From Mytilus trossulus (Eukaryota), in NCBI RefSeq assembly GCF_036588685.1, contig NC_086375.1:58714001-58778000 (forward strand): DNA of 64,000 nt. Reading direction: 5' to 3'. A program made the translations under genes and the position numbers. The notes under the pieces are model-generated. The model was not told the origin of the DNA and searched no databases. It was given only the letters and a program-made list of their open reading frames with translations. Every line of letters begins with the position of its first letter. The first letter of the stretch is position 1. Below are positions 8,561 to 64,000 of this stretch, piece after piece.

Positions 8561-8584
8561 ATTGTCACCACAAGGTGCAATGGG

Positions 8585-9215
8585 AAGCTGAATACCCACG
8601 ATCTGCTTGAAACAAAATCCAGGGTGATGTTCAGCTGAGATTTTTTTCAAATTTAGTCCAAAGTTGGGGTCGGACACCCTACCCCACCCTTACGGAAATG
8701 TTAATAAAAAATGATCTACGTAATACTTTTTTCGCCACTAAATGCATTGTGAAGATGAAAAGGTATGGTCTACTAGAGAAAAAATCCAGGGTGTGGTTCG
8801 GCTTAGCTTTTTTTTTTAATTTGGTCCAACGTTGGGGTCGGACACCCTACCCCACCCTTACGGAAATGTTAATAAAAAATGTTCTACGGCAACACTTTTT
8901 TCGCCACCAGTTGCAACGGGAAGCTGAACACCCAAGGTCTACTTGAGAAAAAAATCCAGGGTGTGGTTCGGCTTAGTTTGTTTTTTAAATTTGGTCCAAA
9001 GTTGAGGTTAGACACCCTACCCCACCCTTACGGAAACGTTAATAAAAAATGTTCTACAGCAATAATATTTTCGCGACTAGGTGCAAGGGGGAGCTGAATA
9101 CCCAAGGTCTACTTGAGAAAAAAATCCAAGGTGTGGTTCGGCTTATTTTTTTTTTTAAATTTGGTCCCAAGTTAGGGTCGGACACCCTACCCCACCCTTA
9201 CGGAAATGTAAAAAA
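8585..9215. repeat. 168-170 bp tandem repeat, about 3.7 copies
   Basis: GACACCCTACCCCACCCTTACGGAAA at 8673, 8841, 9011 and 9181. Confidence 0.95.
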
Positions 9216-12014
9216 ACTAAACAGAATGTTTTGTTAAAACAGATTTGTCTCATTAAAAAAATATTAATGCACTTTCTTTTCTTGTCATGCAGAACAATAA
9301 TAACTTTTCAGGAGGAACTATTTGATAGGATGCAGAGAATATGGAAAGCTATTTGACACAATATCACAAAATCTATACTTTATGAGTTCAATGTCAATTC
9401 CCTGTTACAAGTAAGCATTTGGTTAATTTTAATACATGTTTACGATTCTAGGTACACTCAAAACTGTCGACCATTTTAATAAAAAAATAAAATCGGGGAG
9501 CACGCTGTTTCGTATATTGACATCGATTACTTTTGTCTTAAATTAATGAACAAGACAAAATATTTTTTAAATCATCGAATAGTTCTCCGATTGCTTTATT
9601 ATATATTAAACACTGATAAAATATTGGTAATATATCAATAAATGCATTTTGAGTACGCTTGAATCTTATGCAAATTTTGAGTTCAAAGACATATCCGAAA
9701 AGTGGCTGCTAGCGAGTGGCTGCTAGCTTGAGCCTGGTCATAATCTTACCTTGTTTAAATATATTAAAAGTTTGTTGTATTCCTCATCCTCATCCTCCAT
9801 TCTTTGTATGGACTACACGTACACACAGGTAAGGTGAGCAGTAATTCCATGTATACTGCAATCAGGTGAACAAAAATAGCAAATGCCACTCTTTCTTAAA
9901 AGAAACAAATATACTATGGAACCATATGTGTTTTAGTTCCAGGAAACTATCTTATGAAGGTGAATAGTATATCATGCGATTGGTGTTCACAATATCTTTT
10001 ATTTTGTGCATTTTTCCTTTGATCTTTTTTTGTGATAATTTTCATATCATGCTTCTCGCTTGAGATGGAAAAATTATCGCTAGAAACTAAGGAGGTCACG
10101 TGGCCGGTTGCTAACGAAATTGACATTGAAATTGACAACGTCGTCATAGGTAAAACAGCGATAAATAGATTATCATTGGTCATCTCAACTCGATAGCTTT
10201 TCTCACTTTCGCTGTACCAGCTAAAGCGAAAAAATCAATCTCGTTGAGATAATCAATAATGTTGTTCCAGGGGAACACGTATTATGTGGAACAAGTATAA
10301 TGTCCGCAGACGCCTACCTAGTCAACACATTCGGACTCGATAACTTCGTAAGTTCATACAAATTCCTCGTTTTTTGTTTTTTTTATTGATCAGTATTTTC
10401 CTAGTTGGTTACGGATAATTTTAAATTATTAATTTATCATTGATAAATTACTGTCGCCTTAATTTGTCGTCAATAATAGGTTGATAGATACGATGAGTCA
10501 TTGTCTAAGCTTACAAGCGATATATGTTTATTCATTAAATCTTTTGATGCCACGCCTTGCGGTCATAAAACTTTCGAGCATGATTTTTGTGCTCCGAGCA
10601 CTGAGCAAAGTTTTATGACTTCAACCCCAGTATAGTCGTCTTATCTGTAACAAGTAAGAAATGTTTAGAAATTAAATATCAAAATTATATATACAAAAAA
10701 CATCCGTTCTGTTGCAATCACATAGAGTTGTTCATCTTTGTGCATCATTCGTTTGTCTTAAATGAAATAAAAGAAGATAACAAATTATGTTATAGTTAGC
10801 TTTCGGAACTGTCATTTCAGAAATCTCTGGATACAATTTTCCAGGCGCATTAGTTAATCTGTTAATAGAAACAAATTTAAAGGAGCAATTGCATTTACGT
10901 GGTTCATTAAAACATAACTTCATTCTAAACCATAGCAGAGTTTAATTTTTAAGTATTTAAAGTGAAGATGTTTCGATGGAATCTTTTACAATGTAAATTA
11001 CTTATTAAAAGTTGAAGTTTTGATGGAAGATAACTACAACCAATTCATATAAAACAGTTGTTGCCGAAGAAGTTTTTTTTTTATCTTTCTTTACTGAGCG
11101 ACTTTTTTTTTTAACTTATTGCGCTTATTGTTAATATAAAAAATGAGATGGTTCTTTTTCTTTTAAATCTCATACAAAAATTACTTTTGTTTTTGTACAA
11201 TCTTATTTATGAATCTTCTTCTCTACATTTGTAAAAAGTGTACAAAAACGAATGCGTTATCAAGAAATTAGAATTTCAATGTGAAGTATTATGAAATTTA
11301 GATTGATGTTTAAGAAACAGCCCAACAGTTGGATTATACATTACTTTACTTCACAATGACCTTTATGTAATAAGTAATTGCTTTTTTTTCTAGTATGTTT
11401 GAATCTAATTATAATGATTGAATTTGAGAAAAAGAAAATATATCATTCGAAAAAAGACGGACAAATCAAAATTTGTAAAAAAAAATGCATTTAAAGAAAT
11501 TTCTTTTAAAAAGAGTTCTTTCTTCATTAGCTTCGTTGTATGGAAGAAGACCATACGAAACTAAAATCTTTGAACAAGATCTAACATATTTATATATAAG
11601 AGTCAACTATTTCATGCTCAAATTTCGATTCTAATGCATGGCTCACAAATACAGTTTATTGTTTATCTTTTGATACTTCTTGAGTTATTTAATGATTGTT
11701 CTTAAGATTGAAAAAAAAGATTCATACATATCGTGCACCCAGAAGCTTTGACAAAATAACCTCCGTCAAAACGTTCAAACCAAATAATGTGAATTCCAGT
11801 GGTGTATCTATTCTTGATTACGTAAAGAGCTATATGAACAATAAAGGTAATAATAGTTTACTGGTGTTTAAAATGGATTGAGATTATATAACACAATCAT
11901 ATCATTATCAAATTAAAAAGGTGTGTGAAAAAACCAGACCCCAATTTAAACAAATCTATATCTGGATGCGTGTTATTTGTTTCGAATACTCAATTGAAAG
12001 TATGGACGTCAAGT

Positions 12015-13069: not shown

Positions 13070-13164
13070 CTCGAATCCAAAAATATTAAAAAAGCCAAAT
13101 AAAATACGAAGTTGAAGAGCATTGAGGACCAAATTTCCTAAATGTTTGCCAAATCCAGCTAAGC

Positions 13165-14150
13165 CCGTATGTACCCGTTCCAGCGCTCGGATAATACCCT
13201 GTTACCTATTCGTTACTTATTCGCTATTAATACATTTGTTATACGTTGCACCTTTTAGAAAAGGAATTTCAATTGTGTCCATGTCTCCGATGGTAACAAT
13301 GTGTTCTTAGAGATGAAATGACCCTATTAACGCGCATGTACCCGTTCGAGCGCTCGGATTATACCCTGTTACTTTTTCGTTCCTTATTCGCTTTTAATGC
13401 GCGGGGTATACGTTTCACCTTAAAATAATATTTTTTTTAATTGTGTTCATGTCTCTAGTGGTAACCATGGCTTCTTAGAGATGAAAATAACCCTATTAGC
13501 GCGTATGTTCCCGTTCCAGCGCTCGGTTAATACCCTGTTACTTATTCGTTCCTTATTCGCTTAAAAAACGTTTGTTGTATGTTGCACTATTTAGCAAAGG
13601 TTTTTCAATTATGTTCATGTCTCTGGTGGTAACAATGTGTTCCTACAGATGAAAATAACCCTATTAGCGCACATGTACCCGTTCTAGCGCTCGGTAAATA
13701 CCCTGTTACTTATTAGTTCCTTATTCGCTTATAATACGTTTGTTGTATGTTGCACCTTTTAGAAAAGGATTTTCAATTATGTTCATGTCTCTGGTGGTAT
13801 CGATGTATTCTTACAGATAAAATTACCCTATAAGCGCGCATGTATCCGTTCGAGCGCGCGGATAATACGCTGTTACTGATTCGTTCCTTATTCGCTTTTA
13901 ATACGCGTGGTATACGTTTCACCTTGAAATAAATCGTTTTTTAATTGTGTTCATGTCTCTGGTGGTAACAATGTGTTCCTAGAGATAAATAAACCTATTA
14001 GCGCTTATGTACCCGTTCCAGCGCTCGGATAATACCCTGTTACTTATTCGTTCTGTATTTGCTTATAATACAATTGTTATGCGTTGCACCTTTTATAAAA
14101 GGATTTTCAATTGGGGTAACAATTTGTTCTTAGAGATGATAGACCCTATA
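13165..14150. repeat. About 168-bp satellite-like tandem array, 6 copies
   Basis: GTACCCGTTCCAGCGCTCGG-like starts at 13171, 13338, 13507, 13675, 13842 and 14009. Confidence 0.95.
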
Positions 14151-15099: not shown

Positions 15100-17340
15100 C
15101 ATCTTCAATATCCCTTCTTGAACCTTTCATAAATGTAGACTCTGTGGGTTTTGAATCACAAGACTTCTTTTCATTAGTTTTCTTGCTTTCATAAAGTGGT
15201 GGAAGTCCTTCTGATTCTGAAATTCTCTCTTCTTTTCAAATTGTTCCGATTTTAGTTTGCAAGTTTCCCCCTTTTTTATTTTCGGGCCAGGTATTTTAAA
15301 CGGCGGAGAGAAATACTTAAAGGTTGTTTCTCTTGGTTTCTTTCTTTGCCACTTCTCTTCCATTTTGTCTATATCATCTTGTTCTATTTTATTACTGGTT
15401 TCTCCCTTTTTCCTTTCTTTTTCTTCTCAATCTTGGCATCATTCATAGTTGTAAGGCATTCTCTAATTCTACCTCTAATGCCAGTGTGTATTTGCCGAAG
15501 AAATACTCCAGCAGGGCGATGAAGCTTCTTCTTTAATTAGTATAGTGTGTTTACAATGTTTAACCAGTTTTCCACATAGCAGTTAGTGTCTCTTCATATC
15601 AATTGACTGGCACTTTCTGTGAGTAACAAAAGTCCACTCCACAAAGGAAATAAGTACAAATAGGATTCTAGTAAGTCCTGTACTTCAGGACAATAATACA
15701 CATTTAGTTTTAAAGTATCTGTGTTTGTGACTTTTGTTTTCATCCTAATGTTTGCAAAATGTTTATGAAAAGGTGATGGTGCCTTTATAGTTCTCTGTGA
15801 TGACACTGTCTCAGGTTCCTCTTCATCCTTCAAGTCTGTCTCTAAATCATTAATTTCGGCAGGAGTAAGCAGATTTCTTATTTTCTGATTAAAATTTTCC
15901 AATGCTGTATTTACATTTTCGCTTTCATATTCACTTTGGCATACCAAACACATTTTCTCATACAGTGTAGAAGCTGTCTCTAATTTGAAGCATTTTGGAA
16001 CAGTCCAAATACATATGTAAAAAAAATCCACTTCCCCTCTATCCGGTGTTTATTTTGAAACTTTGTTCCGGAATCTTTTAAGTATGTGTGCAGAGCAAAT
16101 GTGGGCCGTAGTAAAAGTTCCTTATGACCTTTGTTGGTAGCTACATTCCAAGCTCTATTTAGATATGAAGCAATGTTTTCTTGGTTAAAGATAATTAGAG
16201 AAGAATTAATCAATGGCAAAGAGAAATCAACTTAGACTCGCAGAGGTTGACAGGGATTTCACCTGTTAAACAATCGTATGCACTCTTGCTTCAATTTAGA
16301 CCGGCCCAGCATTTGAGGATTGGTCATTACTCAACATTTCCCAAATTGGATTTGGTGGATCCTTCAGTTGTGCGCCTTTAACACGAGCTGCATAATAAAA
16401 TACTGCCTTCTCCTTGTTATTTGTCCTTTTAACAACTGACCCTGTTGCGTCTAAATACAGTACTCCTTCACCCAATTTCACTTTTTCTCTAAATATTTTC
16501 AATTGGTCTTCTTTGAAGCAAACAGCAACAAATGGCGAATAGGACAGAAGTTTAATGTATCCTGGGATGTTTGGAGATTCATAGTTATCCTTCATTACTT
16601 CTTGTGTTATAAAAAGATCTCTCCAATCATCAGCATCCAATTTTTTGGCTAAATTGCTTTCATATACCAGGTTACGAAGCACTGCCTTCGAGGATGTCTG
16701 GGTTCTATTCCCAGCAGAATATGCTTCTTCACTCATTTCTACAAGTTTTTGATAGTGGAGATTGCTGGAGCCAATGTTGCTAGCTTCTGTCTTGTACTCT
16801 TCTCTTCGATCTCCAGATAGATGTCGTTTACGACGTTCATTTCTTGGATGACTAACATCGCCTGTTATGTCTACATTCACATCTACAGTTAGGTCTGTAT
16901 CTGATGGTTCTTTCTGTATGGTAAATACAAGTGACAAGCATTTGTCTAAGGTGCACTTTGCTTTGCCATAAAAAAAAAAAGCTGCATTGTTTTTTCTTGT
17001 GTCTTTTCTAGCTACACGATTATAGATGAAGCACAATACACAGGATTGGATATATCTCTCAATTCTTTCATAGAAAATATTTGTCCACTGTTTGGCAAGA
17101 TGTCTTCCTACAAGGGATTCAACTGCTTTTTTTCAACCATTCTGCAGAGTTGAGAATGAATGAGAAAGATGCAGGTGGAACAGCAGTATACTCCTTCTCT
17201 AAATCTGACTCAGAACATTTATCCCTATTTCCCTCCTCTGACATAGCAAAAGGTATATCATCTGGATCACTTACTTCTAGGCTTTCTATGTCAGTATCTG
17301 ATTTATTAGTGTCACCTCCTAAACTTCTCGTGGTAGATGA
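15100..17340 (-). pseudogene. Decayed MULE-like (NOF/Foldback-type) transposase
   Basis: LYLDATGSVVK, HICSAHILK (CxxH), YLFPLWSGLL, RDTNCYVENW and EEKWQRKK motifs across frameshifted ORFs at 16296-17036, 15980-16219, 15594-16031 and 15127-15363. Confidence 0.75.
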
Positions 17341-27210: not shown

Positions 27211-27459
27211 CTATTTTCCTCCTCCGCCGCCACCTCCTCCTCCTGATTTTCCGCCACCGCCGCCACCACCTCCTCCAGATTTGCCTCCACCACCGCCGCC
27301 TCCGCCACCACTCCCCCCACCACCGCCTCCGCCGCCACCACCTCCGCCGCCTCCTCCTCCGCCTCCGCTTCGTTTAACAATAAGGCGAGCCTCAGACTGT
27401 TCTATGAGGGTTACAATCAGTAAAGATATTACCAATACAGTACAAAGGGAAGGCTTCAT
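27211..27459 (-). CDS. Secreted poly-glycine peptide precursor (gene A): signal peptide, RLIVKR propeptide, S-G18-(S-G9-K)x3
   Basis: Intact 82-aa ORF with hydrophobic signal ending SEA and a dibasic KR site. Gly codons are mixed (GGA/GGC/GGT), as expected for coding sequence. Acceptor TTGCAG lies 5 nt before ATG; TATA and donor upstream; poly(A) signal downstream. Confidence 0.88.
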   Translation of the reverse strand: MKPSLCTVLVISLLIVTLIEQSEARLIVKRSGGGGGGGGGGGGGGGGGGSGGGGGGGGGKSGGGGGGGGGKSGGGGGGGGGK

Positions 27460-30594: not shown

Positions 30595-30816
30595 ATGAAG
30601 AAACTGATCGTTCTTTTTCTCCTGTTTGCTCTTTTACTGGAAAATACAGAGTCAGTGAGACCTCGTCATCCTCCATGTCATCCTTGGCCTCGTTGTAAAT
30701 CATATCCTAAAGGGAGCAGTGGTGGAGGCGGCGGAGGTGGTGGCGGTGCAGGAGGCGGCGGTGGAGGTGGAGGCGGCGGAGGTGGTGGCGGAGGAGGAGG
30801 AGGTGGAGGACGATAG
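30595..30816 (+). CDS. Secreted peptide precursor (gene B): signal peptide, Pro/Arg/His/Cys head VRPRHPPCHPWPRCKSYPK, then GSS-G9-A-G20-R
   Basis: Intact 73-aa ORF. Signal MKKLIVLFLLFALLLENTES; acceptor TTTTCTTATAG 9 nt before ATG; AATAAA at 30876-30881. Confidence 0.88.
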   Translation: MKKLIVLFLLFALLLENTESVRPRHPPCHPWPRCKSYPKGSSGGGGGGGGGAGGGGGGGGGGGGGGGGGGGGR

Positions 30817-33059: not shown

Positions 33060-33188
33060 ATGAAGAAACTGATCGTTCTTTTTCTCCTGTTTGCTGTCTT
33101 ACTGGAAAATACAGAATCAGGTCCTCAACCTCCATGTCACGTTCCTTGTAAATGTGATCCTGTTTTTAAAGGTGGAAATAAAACGTAG
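33060..33188 (+). CDS. Gene B' - 42-aa paralog of gene B lacking poly-Gly: MKKLIVLFLLFAVLLENTES-GPQPPCHVPCKCDPVFKGGNKT
   Basis: Manually translated (below the ORF-track size cutoff). Signal peptide 19/20 identical to gene B; TATA, donor, acceptor and AATAAA retained. Confidence 0.75.
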   Translation: MKKLIVLFLLFAVLLENTESGPQPPCHVPCKCDPVFKGGNKT

Positions 33189-36869: not shown

Positions 36870-39248
36870 TCAAAAGAAAGCACAGTCACGATCAGTTTCT
36901 CTTTCACAGTCCGGTGAGCAGTTGCATAATGCTGTGCATTTTAATGCTGCTTTCAAGAATTTACATGCTCCTATACATCCTTTCTTACATCTACAGTGGA
37001 TGAACTCTTGGCATGACATTGAAGCTTTGGCAAGCACAGACCAGAATGGTACCGAAGTACCATCAAGTTTTTGCCAACCAAATAAATCTGGTGATGGCAT
37101 ACTTGAATTTGCAACTAAACAATTGCGCCCAAAAAACACTACCTTGGTAAGCTGCACGTTTCGTATGTTCAATGAAGAAGTGCATCTCATGATGGAGGAA
37201 TATTGTCAATTGTTCTTGTCTTCTGCGTCAATAACTGTTTTCTAAACTCATTCACCATATTAGCTGTACTAGACCGATCATACAAAAGCACAACATATCG
37301 TTCTATTACTTTTAACACTTTTAAAATTTCCACTTCATTTGGATTTTCAAAAACCTGCAGAAATGCTTCTGACAACTCCTCATATACGAACCATGTATCC
37401 CAAGCTTTTCCCAGAAAAAGCTGAGACTGTGTCACAACCGGTAAATGAATGGAACAGTGGAAAGACTTTCAATTCCAATGGTCCTAGAGCAAGGCACAAT
37501 CCATGAATTGAAATATATAGAAAGTTCTTTCCAGTGCCAAAACCTATCCACAGCTGTTCAGCCATTTGAATTCCCCTTTTAATGCAGCTGGGAATGAGGA
37601 CATATCAATTGAAAGTTCTCCTTCAACTAATGGGATATCCGGTTCGATGAATATTAGTACAGCTGGTGGAAGATTTAAATTACTCTCTGGTAAAAGAGAC
37701 ACTCTCTTTGACTGACATTTCAACATAGGTTCAGATTGGTCAAATGTTTGAACAACGCCTTGAACATCCTCTGAAATATGTTGGAATAAAGATATACCTG
37801 TACCATGGAATGAATTTTTTAACGAGATACTGCTTGAATTGTGATCAATGTTTTCTACAGCAGATGAAGTAAATACATTTTGTAGTGGATTGGTAGGGCA
37901 AACAATACCTTCTTTGACAGAACGACGACAAGCATCCTTGGCCATGGAAGTAGAAATTTCTAACACTCGGTCGTAGGAGACAGACAGTCCAAGATTGAAG
38001 AAAGTATCTACTAGATCACGTTTGCTAGTCTTACATGGATCATGATTCCCAAATTAGCACAAAATGGAGGTTCATGATCTTTCATGTGACGGTTGGATAG
38101 TTTCTTTGTACAACTATACATCAGAAGATGTGCTATTGTTAATGTCGACTGAGAATATGAACGATCCTGAATGTTGGGTCCAAATTGAATCATACTGACC
38201 AAAGTAAGCAATGACTGGGGTACATAAGCTTCCTGATATCCCTTTGGGAAGGTTCCTTTAAATTCTGAATTTGATGCGAAAATATCTTTACGAACAAACG
38301 TAGCTGCTTTTGATATGTTGAAAAACTCATTATCAAAGTCTTCTAAGCAGACTCTCTCAATGCAGGACCAATGTCATCTTTGAAAGCAAGGATGTTTTCA
38401 AGACCTTGTTTGTAAGCATCTAAGTTAGGGAAATTACAATTCTGTGTTTTAGTCGTGTACTACTAACTCGAGATGAAACATCTGCACCTAGACATGTTAT
38501 TCTTTCCGTATAAAGTTTACATAGATCTGACAATCTGAAAATGCAATACCATGGATTTGACTTTCCTTCTTAGATTCGACATTACCATTTTTCATTTCAA
38601 TTTGAGATGCACGATTATATAAGGAAACAAAACATTTAGGGTGTTACTTTGCTTCCTTTGCAATTAGATCACCAGCACTTAACTTTGCAAGTAACAACGT
38701 GTCATTTAATTTTACTGCTCATTCTCTCACATGTGTATCCTGTCCAAACGTTGAGGACTCATGAAGGGCTTCTTGGCCATTTTCATTACAGAAAAAGCAC
38801 ACAGACGGGTAACTGGTGGACTGAACGGAGAGGCTATGTCTAGTTTTCTTTTAGATGTGGTTGCTTTGTCATTTATTCTCTCATGTAAGGTTGTTTTTTC
38901 TGCTCTATCCAACTTTGTCCTGTTCAGTTTCAAGTTGCAATATTTGTGCCAACATGCCTTTTGGTCAATGAAATACTGTGCTATTCCGGGTCCCTCATCT
39001 AAATATAAGTTTGCAATGCACACATTAATGCCTTCAGGCATCAATCGTAATTCATGAAACTTCTAAATATTGTCAGCTAAAGATTGATAACCAGCACCAA
39101 CATTGAGACGTTTAGAATCAAATGGGCATATACGTTTTTCATCTATTATTTCTTGGCATAGGATGCAATTTGCCCAATCAATATTATTTAACTTAGTTGG
39201 TTTGTCATATTCTACACTTGATACCCTGAACGTCTTTTCAGTAGCCAT
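36870..39248 (-). pseudogene. Academ transposase relic (N-terminal Cys region, XPG-like FHSFTGCDTVSAF motif, C-terminal Cys8 finger)
   Basis: ORF fragments IDWANCILCQE, ACWHKYC, NIDHNSSS...SFHGTGISLFQH, LWIGFGTGK, FHSFTGCDTVSAF, CRCKKGCIGACK..KAALKCTALCNC. Confidence 0.85.
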
Positions 39249-39494
39249 GTTGTAAGAAATATGATCGTAAATTAGTTTATATATTCCTTGTATATAACTT
39301 CTGTATGCCAGACGCGTGTTTCGTCTACAAATGTCGTATCAGTGACGCTTGAATCGAAAAAGTTAAAAAGACAAACAAAAAGTATTTAATTTAATATTTG
39401 ACGACCTGAAATCCTGAAAGTTTTGCAAAGCACAAATATTTGTTGATTATTAAAAGCTTTCTAGATATACACGATATAGTTTCTGATAATAAGA

Positions 39495-40000
39495 CTTTTG
39501 ACGGCCATTTTGAATTTGTCGGCCATTTAGCAATTATTTTTGATTGTTCCATATTCAGAAAAGATTAATTAGCATCATAACTAGCAATATGCAAAGTTTT
39601 TTGCTTTTATTTTCAAATGATCAATTATACCATTTTTATTTTGGACTCTGCCTCATGACTGTTGGCGGCCATTTTGAATTTGTCGGCCATTATGGAATTA
39701 TTTTGATTGTTCCATATTCATTAAAGATTATTAAGCACCATAACTAGCAATATGCAAAGTGTTGTGTTTTTATTTTCAATGATAAATTATACCATATTTT
39801 TGGACTCTGCCTCATGACTGTTGGTGGCCATTTTGAAATTGGCGGCCATTTTTGATTTTTTTTTATTGTTCCATATTCAGAAAAGATTAATAATCATCAT
39901 AATTAGCAATATGCAAAGTTTTTTGCTTTTACTTTCAAATGTTAAATTAAACTATATTTTTTGACTCTGCTTCATGACTGTTGGCGGCCATTGTGGATTT
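39495..40000. repeat. About 161-bp subterminal tandem repeats of the Academ element
   Basis: GGCCATTTTG units at about 39502, 39664, 39823 and 39983. Confidence 0.85.
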
Positions 40001-44600: not shown

Positions 44601-44789
44601 GTTCTTTAACGTTCGATTCATTTCGTATGAGTATACGCATCTTTAAACACTTGGCTTCTTGCATCATCGAAAAGTAATTAATTGCCGAAACACGGATCTG
44701 CTTCAGTAATATTGGGACCGTTATTACTACCCCACTGTATTGGTTCCTGTCGGTGGACTTATTTTAACTATAACAATCCCCCATCCCCC

Positions 44790-45232
44790 ACCCCCATTAT
44801 TTTTCTCTAGAAGTCCTGGAATAGGCCGACCCTACCCCCATTTTTTTTAACATTTTTTTCGAATTTTGAGCTCTAGTTTCAGATTTTTGAACATAGCGCC
44901 CTTCGATACCTAGCGCAAAAGTAGCGCCTGTTTCTCCTCTACAAGACCTATATAGTCATATCCCGTGACACCCCCATTATTTTTCTCTAGAAATCCTGGA
45001 ATAGGCCGACCCTACCCCCATTTTTTTTACATTTTTTTCGAATTTTGAGCTCTAGTTTCAGATTTTTGAACATAGCGCCCTTCGATACCTAGCGCAAAAG
45101 AAGCGTATGTTTCTCCTCTACAAGACCTATATAGTCATATCCCGTGACACCCCATTATTTTTCTCTAGAAGCCCTGGAATAGGCAGACCCCCCTAATTTT
45201 TTGACATTTTTTTTCAAATTTTGAGCTCTAGA
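44790..45232. repeat. About 179-bp tandem repeat, 2.5 near-identical copies
   Basis: CCCCATTATTTTTCTCTAGAA..CCTGGAATAGGC at about 44791, 44971 and 45149. Confidence 0.95.
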
Positions 45233-59200: not shown

Positions 59201-59914
59201 GGGTTTGGCGCCACCCAACATGCTCAACCCCGGACTCAACTTTCTATATGTCCTTGTCCCATAGTCAAGAACGTGTAGTTCAGTATTGATCGTTTGTTGT
59301 TGTATATCATTTTTTCGTTCTTTGTTTTGTAGACAAATCAAGCCGTTAGTTTTCTCGTTTGAATTGTTTTACATTTGTGCTGGGACTTAGTTAGTATAGA
59401 AAGTCCCTGATTTCTGATTTCTAAGCCTTTTTATAGCTTTCATATTGTGATGTATGTGATTTGCTCATTGTTGAAAATCTTAGGTGACCAATAGTTATTT
59501 TCTATGTTATTTAGATTTTGGTGGACAGTTGTCTTAGCTGCAATCATATCAGATCTTTGATGTTCATAAGTGTTGAAGAACATTTTAAAAATAAATTAGA
59601 AAAAAATGTGAAGCATAAAAACAAAACTTATATCATGTATAACTATTTTAAGATTAATTTTCATTAGCATTACTTCTTCAGCGGTAAAGAAAGCATTGTT
59701 TTAATGCAAAATAATTTACTAGTAACTATTTGTTATTGTAATGTGGTAGAATGATTGCAGATGCATTTGTCATGTTTTGATGTCATTCAATATTCCAGAT
59801 ATAATTATAAAAACAAATATGAAATTTTATAATTTTAGTGGAAACAACATACGATGTGCATTAATACATGCAGTGCGGATGCAACAATTGAACAAATAAT
59901 TGTTTTTTAAATAT

Positions 59915-59993
59915 TTTATTTTTAAATTCTGATGTGTCGTTCTGGTTCATATTTCCATATTTTTATAACCGTCTAGTTTGAGCACCTATAGTT
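59915..59993 (-). other. Gene D putative non-coding 3' exon (acceptor 59995-59994, AATAAA 59920-59915)
   Basis: Donor G|GTAGGT 5 nt after the stop; TTTCTTTTTCAG acceptor; poly(A) signal. Confidence 0.5.
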
Positions 59994-60461
59994 CTGAAAA
60001 AGAAATTTTAACCTCATTTAAAATATCTTCAAGACATGATTGAAGTGGAAAATTTAATACAGATATATACATGTATCTAGAAGTTATCAACGCATACAAG
60101 TTCAACATAATGTCCAGGTTAGGTAATGACTTGATTTTAAAAAATTTCTATAAGTAAATAAAATTGAAATAGGGAACGTGTCAAAGAGACATCACAACTA
60201 CCAAAGAACAGAAAACAGCCAAAGTCCAAAAAGGGTTTTTAACATCCGAGAAAATCATGCACCCGGAAGCAGGCTTCATCTAGCCACTAAGAAAACATGC
60301 GTACTAGTTCAATTAAAATGGACGTCCTACTGTACCACGTATGTCACCAATGAATGCCATTAAAATCTTTGGCTTTTAAACACATTCATTTATACGTTTT
60401 TGAACAAAGAGTTTAATATTTCAAACAAAAAATAGATATATTTAAAACACACCTACCCTTT

Positions 60462-60695
60462 TTAACAACCTCTTCCTCCTCTCCCTCCTGTGCCTCCTTG
60501 ACCTCCAGGGGTACCAGGTTCTCCCGGACATCCTCCTCCAAAGTCCCATCCAGGTTCTCCAGGTCGCCCGGGTTCACCAGGTCTTCCAGGTTCACCGGGT
60601 TGTCCAGGACCACCACCCCTTCCACCTTCTCTCCATTGTCCATTTATACAACATAAAACTATCACAAAAACGCTAATAAATACAAGGCACTTCAT
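60462..60695 (-). CDS. Secreted collagen-like / Gly-X-Y micro-protein precursor (gene D)
   Basis: Intact 77-aa ORF. Signal MKCLVFISVFVIVLCCING; mature region starts with Gln; G-X-P then G-G-X triplets; two Cys. Acceptor TTTTCTTTCAG 3 nt before ATG. Confidence 0.87.
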   Translation of the reverse strand: MKCLVFISVFVIVLCCINGQWREGGRGGGPGQPGEPGRPGEPGRPGEPGWDFGGGCPGEPGTPGGQGGTGGRGGRGC

Positions 60696-60985
60696 TTTCT
60701 GAAAGAAAATAGCAAACGAGATTAAATAAAATCAATTCCCAAAAATAAGAATTGAATCCAGATTTTGAGTGCGCAGATTTTATCCTCCAAACAGTTTTGC
60801 TATAAAAAGTTTGCAAAATAGATTAAAACCTACGTCTTTAAAGATTTTTAACCTCAACTTTAAAGTCACTAAATTAAGTAAATCTTCAAGGTAAAGTATG
60901 CTTGTATAACATTTTCACATAAATTAAAAGACAAAACACATTTTTACATTTAATTGAAATCCATTAACTTGTTATTCAAAAATGA

Positions 60986-62149: not shown

Positions 62150-63190
62150 ATTTCGTGCGAAATAGCATCATAGTTTTCCAACCACTCTCTCAACATTTAA
62201 ACGGAAACAGTGCACGAATGATGTTTCCTAAAACCAAACTTTTTGACGGAAATGCATCGTACTTTGAGTGGTCTATTGGTTTCTTTACCAAAACTCAAAC
62301 ACAAGGTTTCAATATAAATGGACAGAAAATTCTAAACTTAAACTTATTGATGATTTATTGACTGAAAATGTAAAGAATGAGATAATAGAGTTTGAAATGA
62401 TTAATTACGGGGAAAATCAGGTTGGTGTTGATGAGGCTACAAAAAAATTGTAGATAATATTTCAAGCCTTTCTTGTAAAGCAACTCCAAAACCTAAGAGG
62501 AGGAAGAAGAAAAGAAAATTTAAACAAGTTTTGTCAGACAATGTTATATATGAAACCAAGCGTCAAATAAATAAAATAGGAAACAAAATAAGAAATAATC
62601 CAAATAATAAAAGTTTAAAGCAAAAGTTTTTTGAGGTAAAAAAAAAACTTGAAGAAAATGGTTAAACAGAAAAAGTATGAATATAAACAGAAACTTTATA
62701 ATTGTTTAAGTGAATATATCGATCAAAATCCAAAGGAAATATTGGAAAATTTTAAAATCTCTTAGGAATAAAACAGAAAAAGATGAACTATCAGAGGTAT
62801 TAAAAGATGAAGAAGTTTTAATAAAACATTTTCAAGATCAAGGTAAACCTTCATCTATAAATAGTGCTTTTATGATAGACATTGAATCACAATTAAAGTT
62901 GTTAGAAAATAATATAAACTTCAAAGCTGAAACAGATGCTCCAATATCTTGTTCAGAAGTAAATATAAGGTAATCAGAGTACTAAAACTTCAAAAAGTCT
63001 GCCGGACCAGATAGAATTATAAATGAAATAATGAAAACCTCAAATCAAGTAATAATTAAGTAAATTGTTAAAATATTTAATTTAATTCTAAAAACGGGTT
63101 TATACCCAAAATCATGGAAGGACTCATATATAATCGCACTTCATAAGAAGGGAGACAAATCTGATCCCAATAATTACAGAGGTATTATCT
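62150..63190 (+). mobile_element. Decayed LINE ORF2 fragment (region preceding and entering RT)
   Basis: LKLQKSAGPDRIINE, IFNLILKTGLYPKSWKDSYIIALHKKGDKSDPNNYRGI; frameshifts. Confidence 0.85.
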
Positions 63191-63764
63191 TTAATCAGGT
63201 GGCAGAAACCAGTTATTTTACAATAAATATTAAGAATTTCATGGATTTATGATTTTATTTTCTTGAAAATTCATTCAAGCTTATATACAAATAAAATGTA
63301 TGGTTTCAAGGAACCAAGATGTGTGCGTGCTTATGTAAATATATAGAAAACCTTTAAATGTGGGTGTCTGTCCAGCATGGAGATTTAAAAAAAATATAAA
63401 TGCATTGTAAATAAGGCAAAAAATGTGATGCTCTGAGACCAATCTGTTGCATTGCTCACCTGCAGAATCCTGCTAAAAGCCGACAAGAATTTTAGGCAAA
63501 ATTCAAGAGATAAAGGATATTTAGTGAATTAGAGCCTTGTCCGAACCTATCCTTACCATTAAAATCTCAAGATATTTTTGTTTACAAAAAAACGAATATT
63601 TTCACTACTTTGATTGAATGCCGTCAAGTGAGGAGACCACAATTTTGACATCTGATTGGACCCATGGGTGAAGGAAATCCCCAACATGTGTATGCAACTA
63701 CTCACTTGTGCAGTACACTAGCCTAGAATTTACATTCATTTATTTTGTTAGTCCACATAATGCA

Positions 63765-64000
63765 ATTATATACCTCAATGCTTTACTATTGAATAGGAAA
63801 CGGTGTGTAAAAGTCGGTGCATATTTTAGTACCTGGCAAAATATCTACAAAGGTGTACCGCAGGGCTCGATTTTGGGTCCTGTGCTTTTGAATATTTTTC
63901 TAAACGACATTTTCAATTTTGTGAAAGAAAATGAACTGTATAATTATGCAGACGATATTACATTGTCAAACTCAGGACCAGACCTAAATGGATTAGTTAA
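63765..64000 (+). mobile_element. CR1/L2-group RT fragment, runs off the window
   Basis: YLLNRKRCVKV...KGVPQGSILGPVLLNIFLNDIF...YNYADD. Confidence 0.88.

Follow-up and report, generated by a model that had tools for sequence, protein, structure and literature searches.

The gene and its predicted peptide

The window, by which we mean the whole stretch of 64,000 nucleotides analysed here (contig C3:58714001-58778000), carries on its minus strand at 60462..60695 a complete coding sequence of 77 aa in one exon (gene T), with the ATG at 60695 and the TAA at 60464-60462, exactly as in a preliminary description of this DNA. Residues 1-19 (60639..60695, minus strand) would form a signal peptide ending in Asn-Gly: cleavage after Gly19 is predicted from a hydrophobic core, the -3/-1 rule and the Asn-Gly common to T and its two paralogs (see below), and residues 2-22 form a helix in the AF2 model. 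In the resulting mature peptide of 58 aa (∼5.5 kDa), Gly makes up 45% (26 residues) and Pro 17% (10 residues); there are also 6 Arg, 5 Glu, 2 Thr, 2 Trp and 2 Cys but no Ala, Ser or Val, and the net charge is 0.

The Gly register that had been noted in this peptide holds: of the 18 mature positions 6, 9 ... 57, Gly occupies 17 and Phe the remaining one (Phe33), a regularity reached in none of 200,000 composition-preserving shuffles (the shuffle maximum was 16, in three shuffles). The N-terminal Gln, the internal Cys and the C-terminal Cys that had been named are present as Gln1, Cys37 and Cys58. The peptide had also been said to have no trimerisation domain, and none is seen, because a Pfam search with T and the two paralog proteins at E ≤ 1 returned 0 families and no collagen match.

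Two Gly-X-Y blocks, of 9 and 7 full triplets, make up most of the mature peptide. Block 1 (60543..60623, minus strand) contains seven G-X-P among its nine triplets and coincides in part with a 9/18-bp tandem DNA repeat; the repeat, with periods of 9, 18 and 27 bp, lies at 60549-60615, so that part of the length of the block is probably due to recent slippage. A linker of three residues, Phe-Gly-Gly (60534..60542, minus strand), stays in register and leads to block 2 (60465..60533, minus strand), which opens with Gly-Cys, continues with G-X-P and G-G-X triplets and closes with Gly-Cys, the two Cys being 21 residues apart.

Transcript structure and variation

At least 19 runs from 8 studies carry part of the stretch, and 8 of the 23 listed runs were compared, seven of them RNA-like and one DNA-like. 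None of these runs is on record as RNA; the spliced joint itself is the evidence for a transcript. This joint (60457/60458 to 59993) is found in contigs of four of the seven RNA-like runs (X2, X3, X16 and X17), from three studies and under two species labels, and it delimits an intron of 463 nt in the 3' UTR (59994..60456, minus strand) with GT..AG ends and its donor 5 nt past the TAA. The other three RNA-like runs have no listed joint: the X1 contig stops at 60458, coverage in X12 is confined to 60530-60798, and in X14 the contig goes 78 nt beyond 60460. In the large DNA-like run X15, a single contig spans the stretch without the joint. The last exon (59903..59993, minus strand, 91 nt) is non-coding and has an AATAAA at 59920-59915; the X17 contig (496 nt) ends at 59903.

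On the 5' side, contigs cover a leader at 60696..60863 (minus strand) in which a putative acceptor-like AG lies 3 nt ahead of the ATG. They are unspliced as far as 60791-60863 in X1, X2, X12, X16 and X17, and as far as 61539 in X3. Most runs read through this AG (60699-60700) unspliced, and the main X14 contig starts at 60698, exactly there.

Gene T is a spliced, complete gene with a single coding exon. Its TAA is kept in the mature mRNA, because the sole intron seen starts 5 nt after the stop and the last exon is non-coding with a polyadenylation signal; T is therefore not the first exon of a long collagen, a reading that the spliced contigs refute. Splicing ahead of the TAA into further coding exons, which the preliminary description had proposed as a check, was looked for in these contigs with a negative result.

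Among the variants listed, three replace a residue of the mature region (R3S, R7K and R25Q), while two of its Gly codons and one Pro codon show synonymous variants; none of those listed costs a register Gly, and no indel is listed for the mature part, which contigs of X1, X2, X14, X16 and X17 cover without any. The form in X14 differs in the signal peptide by substitutions and one 3-nt insertion, and a low-depth X16 contig shows 11 differences and no gap. Alleles or close orthologs of T under two species labels thus retain the Gly register.

Paralogs and the conserved design

A search with the T protein against the genome assembly (1.30 Gb, 541 contigs) gave 36 matches at E ≤ 10, among them two strong non-self matches (E about 1e-10) that lie 380-400 kb from T on the same contig. 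Twelve further loci were read and are mostly multi-exon collagen-type genes. The collagen most like T is a locus with collagen-type exons (L004, contig C5:41276453-41279566) that has a strong bias for G-X-P over G-P-X triplets of 27 to 3, and it is possibly a source or a parallel of block 1. A degenerate DNA pattern for the C-terminus recovered the three known copies and was too loose across the genome, with 294 matches vs 245 in the control.

Identity to T is 67% for one paralog and 65% for the other. Between themselves they are 87% identical over ∼2.9 kb, and since they are evidently recent duplicates of each other, we count them as one independent comparison. In T and both paralogs, 7-9 triplets form a G-X-P block, a linker with Trp follows, and the second block runs from Gly-Cys to Gly-Cys-stop; Trp31 and the C-terminal 8 residues are retained as well. 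Within the blocks Gly is strictly kept at each third position and indels are triplet-sized, and the two Cys always occupy X positions, 21 residues apart in T and 18 in each paralog. The linker, by contrast, measures 3 aa in register in T and 14 and 13 aa out of register in the paralogs, and the mature N-terminus is Gln in T vs Arg in both of them. The net charges of the three peptides are 0, 0 and -1.

As both paralogs lack them, neither the unbroken register nor an N-terminal Gln that might become pyroGlu is a feature of the family, and pyroGlu in that role is rejected. The expectation that orthologs would keep the triplet register stands for the alleles or close orthologs mentioned above and fails between the blocks of both paralogs. 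What the three sequences have in common is a design of a G-X-P block, a Trp-containing linker and a Cys-bracketed block of G-X-P and G-G-X triplets, rather than a single continuous collagen register.

A cluster of Gly-rich signal-peptide genes

A scan of 864 kb of contig C3 (NC_086375.1, 58.114-58.978 Mb) for short ORFs with a signal-peptide-like start revealed 12 members, seven at 58.37-58.44 Mb and five at 58.74-58.77 Mb, all five of the latter in the window, and no further ones in the 200 kb left of the cluster or the 200 kb right of the window. The earlier account of a single peptide missed this cluster of Gly-rich signal-peptide genes, of which four more lie in the window. The 12 ORFs fall into five subfamilies: the T type (three), a short Gly/Arg type (two), a type with two Cys and poly-Gly (two), a Pro/Arg type with two Cys and poly-Gly (three, one of them tail-less) and near-pure poly-Gly (two). 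With signal lengths assumed, the Gly content is 38-81% in 11 of the 12. Of the nine neighbours outside the T subfamily, seven are cationic (net charges from +5 to +7), and six have a C-terminus of Gly and basic residues. A C-terminal Gly followed by Lys or Arg is a possible amidation signal.

The four window neighbours all begin with a predicted signal peptide. C2 (49342..49629, minus strand, 95 aa) combines a 2-Cys segment with a poly-Gly tail; D2 (30595..30816, plus strand, 73 aa) has a Pro/Arg-rich 2-Cys head and a poly-Gly tail; D3 (33060..33188, plus strand, 42 aa) is a short D2 paralog without that tail; and E2 (27211..27459, minus strand, 82 aa) is almost pure poly-Gly with Lys/Ser. Three of these four have poly-Gly tracts of 11-20 residues and a net charge of +6. 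Unnamed relatives of C2 with 92% and 71% identity occur in Logan contigs of 1.0-1.4 kb. We consider the four as candidates for bivalve Gly-rich defence or matrix peptides.

The second half of the cluster (C3:58373635-58443739, L051-L058) comprises seven genes, including the short Gly/Arg-rich type ending in Gly-Arg-Arg-Lys, which has no copy in the window. The first 12 codons of gene B2 recur as an exact copy ∼240 bp upstream of the gene (C3:58411943-58411978, minus strand). The left-hand group reads C+ D- E+ and the right-hand one E- D+ C-, its mirror image, and the T subfamily takes the outermost place in each; this arrangement points to an inverted block duplication with the halves ∼300 kb apart, in which one member of each of four subfamilies was kept. 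Their retention in both halves suggests that the four may form a set working together.

Splice-like sites are much commoner around the cluster ORFs than around background ORFs: an acceptor-like site ahead of the ATG occurs in 8 of the 12 cluster ORFs vs 162 of 1,710 background ORFs, and a donor-like site after the stop in 7 of 12 vs 121 of 1,710; in most members the acceptor-like AG lies 3-9 nt ahead of the ATG. Comparison of the 5' sequences links subfamilies B and D (z 5-7) and the T subfamily to the others weakly (z up to 3.5).

Other features of the window and the contig are of a different kind. A degenerate LINE-type reverse-transcriptase remnant with frameshifts was recognised by motif at 62300-64000 (plus strand), and open frames of 151-278 aa without a Pfam match over the cut-off, probably transposon remnants, lie at 15594-17132 and 37544-38053 (both minus strand). 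Satellite-like tandem arrays with periods of 159-179 bp occupy 8568-9216, 13162-14113, 39493-40000 and 44789-45231. Between the cluster halves there are duplicated intronless frames of ∼500 aa that are membrane-protein-like (C3:58463970-58465499 and 58480340-58481827, plus strand) and an inverted pair of 436-aa frames whose first 110 residues are identical (C3:58509962-58511269, plus strand, and 58521168-58522475, minus strand). Across the genome, the myticin Pfam family has eight matches above its cut-off, from which we take the DNA to be that of a mytilid mussel, probably Mytilus.

Homology and literature searches

None of the searches for homologs produced a named one. A single-sequence protein search with T found 0 matches at E ≤ 0.001 among 78 candidates, and an alignment search gave six weak matches only (E 0.1-0.96). 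A profile search of 1.84 billion representatives yielded 18 matches, the five shortest of which are generic Gly-X-Y or Gly-rich proteins without the Cys pattern. None of 10 cluster proteins was found by exact look-up, and a stored relative of C2 gave no usable match in the protein atlas. In the PDB, T had nine matches at E ≤ 1, collagen-like by composition only and without a springtail antifreeze protein (AFP) among them.

A literature search that included four short motifs found no description of the T family; most subscription journals and all supplements were outside its scope. Oyster Gly-rich genes carry composition-based labels such as 'ctenidin-1-like' and are treated as biomineralisation genes in PMC12040131, and for this reason automatic annotations of the cluster may exist outside the collections searched. 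Among mytilids, a 'low complexity protein - collagen-like' from the mantle rim and one labelled 'glycine-rich secreted protein' from the gill of Mytilisepta virgata are highly expressed and uncharacterised according to the tables of PMC5549309; compared by these labels alone, they could be homologs of T. On present sequence comparisons we are dealing with a real gene family, in kind small secreted Gly-rich proteins, that has no named match in the collections searched.

Possible roles: extracellular material or defence peptide

The explanation that we tentatively prefer, and to which we give somewhat less than an even chance, is that T is a flexible chain whose two Cys form disulfide links in an extracellular material made of protein, to which its poly-Gly neighbours likely belong as well. 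Starting from the spliced transcript with its retained stop and its polyadenylation signal, the signal peptide would be cut after Asn-Gly and Y-position Pro may be hydroxylated. Each Gly-X-Y block would then sample short polyproline-II (PPII) helices, the chain probably being too short and too rich in Gly-Gly for a free-standing triple helix. The two conserved Cys around block 2 may form disulfides, either intermolecular or closing a hairpin. By such bonds chains could be tied together in a matrix or coat, on mantle, periostracum, gill or byssus for instance.

A role in a matrix is supported by what has been conserved, because the blocks, the Cys, Trp31 and the C-terminal 8 residues are kept while the register across the linker is lost. 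Their near-zero net charges moreover set the three peptides apart from cationic antimicrobial peptides of the usual kind. A high combined content of Pro and Gly is shared by elastomeric proteins, among them abductin and the elastic domains of the byssus (PMC3542772), and with its Gly and Pro contents T has a composition of that general kind. Against the matrix reading it may be said that seven of nine neighbours are cationic and six have Gly plus basic ends, which would fit defence peptides at least as well. The strict Gly periodicity and the triplet-sized indels would also imply packing with Gly on one face, and hence more order than in a random elastomer. Given the weak match of the T subfamily's 5' ends to those of the others, common ancestry of the whole cluster is a possibility only.

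The main rival is a role in mucosal or humoral defence, in which the cluster would be a bank of Gly-rich host-defence peptides and the neutral T a scaffold, an agglutinin or a partner of the cationic ones; we regard it as unlikely. The arrangement, with small genes for signal-peptide proteins that lie in tandem and fall into distinct subfamilies, is similar to that described for the myticalins (PMC12294457), and the positive charge and the Gly plus Lys/Arg ends of the neighbours are in line with it. However, the T subfamily is neutral or acidic, and the allelic changes listed for its mature part are few and conservative rather than hypervariable. The second intron of myticalin genes interrupts the coding sequence, unlike the intron of T, and T is without their C-terminal extension (PMC12294457); according to the same source, of 2025, bivalves are not known to have any glycine-rich antimicrobial peptide.

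Possible folds: triple helix or polyproline-II bundle

Readings of how the chain folds partly overlap with readings of what it does. T had been described as a 'micro-collagen', and once its Pro residues are hydroxylated, three of its chains might indeed wind into a very short triple helix, with disulfides between the chains as clamps at either end of block 2. We find this improbable, although the Gly register is far past chance, 25 of the 43 full triplets counted across the three paralogs (T having 16 of the 43) are G-X-P and hence hydroxylase targets, a bias that recurs in the collagen-type locus L004, and both Cys occupy X positions whose spacing is divisible by three. Terminal Gly-Pro-Cys disulfides have moreover been used to stabilise short synthetic triple helices (PMC10765305).

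The composition of the triplets speaks against it. Gly in X or Y acts as an interruption, for which KGE/KGD salt bridges can compensate (PMC11923368), and 6 of the 16 triplets of T have such a Gly, compared with 30 of 689 triplets from collagen-type exons at 11 loci of this genome, which are similarity hits taken to be collagens (Fisher p 6e-5, the triplets not being independent). The longest runs of triplets without Gly in X or Y are 7, 5 and 3 in the three paralogs, whereas the Cys-bracketed block has only 2-3 consecutive ones and block 1 of one paralog only three. None of the 43 triplets is Gly-Pro-X, no Lys occurs, and so neither KGE nor KGD is found in the three peptides. The blocks are, furthermore, parted by the Gly-to-Phe position or by an insert of 13-14 aa, and trimerisation domain and Pfam collagen match are both absent. 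For comparison, (Gly-Pro-Hyp)8 has a Tm of 47.3 C, and each substitution in X often costs 2-15 C in a roughly additive manner (PMC7824840). Because every X is non-Pro and such costs add up, and because the Gly-free runs are short and both Gly-Pro-X and Lys are missing, a stable free-standing triple helix of T appears unlikely. The label 'micro-collagen' is thus partly supported by the sequences, in the register though poorly in the very short triple helix that it implies.

Alternatively, T might fold on itself into a compact intramolecular PPII bundle shut by a Cys37-Cys58 disulfide, with the G-G-X segment as the inner helix, which we also consider improbable. According to bioRxiv 10.1101/2023.11.25.568672, a helix in such bundles contains more Gly the more neighbours it has and less at the edge, the loops at the flanks are tolerant, and the springtail protein owes stability to disulfides; a linker that varies between conserved blocks with Gly periodicity would fit loops of this kind. 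Springtail AFPs can also bear pyroGlu and some Hyp (PMC10235112). Their strings, however, consist of 3-4 triplets joined by loops of 3-6 residues, often with Gly at X1 and with an Ala-rich flat face (PMC10235112), whereas the blocks of the T family have 7-9 triplets. X1 is Gly in 5 of the 16 triplets of T, four of these in the last block; X is otherwise mostly Glu, Arg or Gln, Y is Pro, and Ala is rare (0 in T, one in each paralog). The AF2 models gave no informative fold, neither for the precursor (mean pLDDT 55.7, pTM 0.26) nor for the mature peptide (mean pLDDT 52.3, pTM 0.17).

A more far-reaching proposal, and a decidedly doubtful one, takes the cluster as a co-secreted kit whose G-X-P, G-G-X and poly-Gly parts span the PPII series which Segura Rodriguez and Laurents trace in their review from collagen over (Pro-Gly-Gly)n sheets to a poly-Gly honeycomb (bioRxiv 10.1101/2023.11.25.568672). 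The products would assemble into a multi-chain PPII honeycomb with a poly-Gly core, T capping the edges with its G-G-X part inward and its G-X-P part outward, locked by disulfides. Polyglycine-II bundles have so far been single-chain domains or synthetic peptides, in the account of that review, and if the proposal were true, the cluster would provide a natural extracellular material or defence mesh made of intermolecular ones.

Ice binding, a special case of the PPII bundle, strikes us as very improbable. T had been likened to springtail antifreeze proteins, but the Ala-rich face and the 3-4-triplet helix/loop pattern are missing, and judged by composition no flat face rich in Ala, Ser, Thr or Val was found in T or its paralogs; with no Ala in T and X mostly Glu, Arg and Gln, an antifreeze function is unlikely, and a springtail-type antifreeze is rejected. 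It is scarcely credible that T is a first collagen exon or a non-coding repeat artefact, even though a strong splice donor adjoins the ORF end and block 1 is a DNA tandem repeat, as the donor is used 5 nt past the TAA (4 runs, 3 studies), the next exon is non-coding with an AATAAA, listed variants at Gly codons are synonymous, and two paralogs keep the ORF with the same Gly-Cys-stop end.

Comparison with known systems

Taken as a single gene, T is a modest find, since animal materials commonly contain small secreted proteins rich in Gly. It is spliced and present under two species labels, yet the protein collections searched gave no named match for it or for its neighbours. The cluster offers a set of short peptides (2-6 kDa) that can be synthesised for two questions. 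One is whether bivalves have glycine-rich defence peptides, none being known according to PMC12294457. The other is how short and how Gly-rich a natural Gly-X-Y chain can be before the triple helix gives way to a PPII bundle or to disorder.

Cnidarian minicollagens and nematode cuticle collagens are short or non-fibrillar and consist of interrupted, Cys-flanked Gly-X-Y blocks. T is like them in its interrupted blocks, its Y-position Pro and the Cys near the blocks that could cross-link. It differs in being far shorter, in having neither a Cys-rich or trimerisation domain nor Gly-Pro-X or Lys, in a second block that is mainly G-G-X, and in staying below Pfam collagen detection.

Glycine-rich antimicrobial peptides of arthropods include acanthoscurrin, the ctenidins and serrulin. 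The cationic poly-Gly neighbours of subfamilies B, D and E resemble these in composition and in the C-terminus of Gly plus basic residues; T itself, the G-X-P peptide with two Cys, is neutral.

The springtail AFPs HhAFP (PDB 3BOG) and GrAFP (7JJV), which are PPII bundles, share with T the small size, a signal peptide, Gly at each third residue, G-G-X triplets and Cys, and the pyroGlu and Hyp reported for springtail AFPs (PMC10235112) are both possible in T; its long G-X-P runs and two Cys, the absence of an Ala-rich face and the PDB search set it apart. The myticalins of Mytilus gill are likewise compositionally biased secreted peptides encoded in a tandem cluster with distinct subfamilies (PMC12294457). 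In that description they have no Cys, a C-terminal extension and a phase-1 intron within the coding sequence, whereas T has two Cys, a net charge of 0, no extension and an intron in the 3' UTR.

From abductin and the elastic domains of byssal preCols T differs in its size of only ∼5.5 kDa, in its strict triplet periodicity and in having Cys as the sole evident cross-link, and no homology to them was found. What T has in common with them is the high content of Pro and Gly, the repeated Pro-Gly, and a presumed disorder and presumed need for cross-links (PMC3542772).
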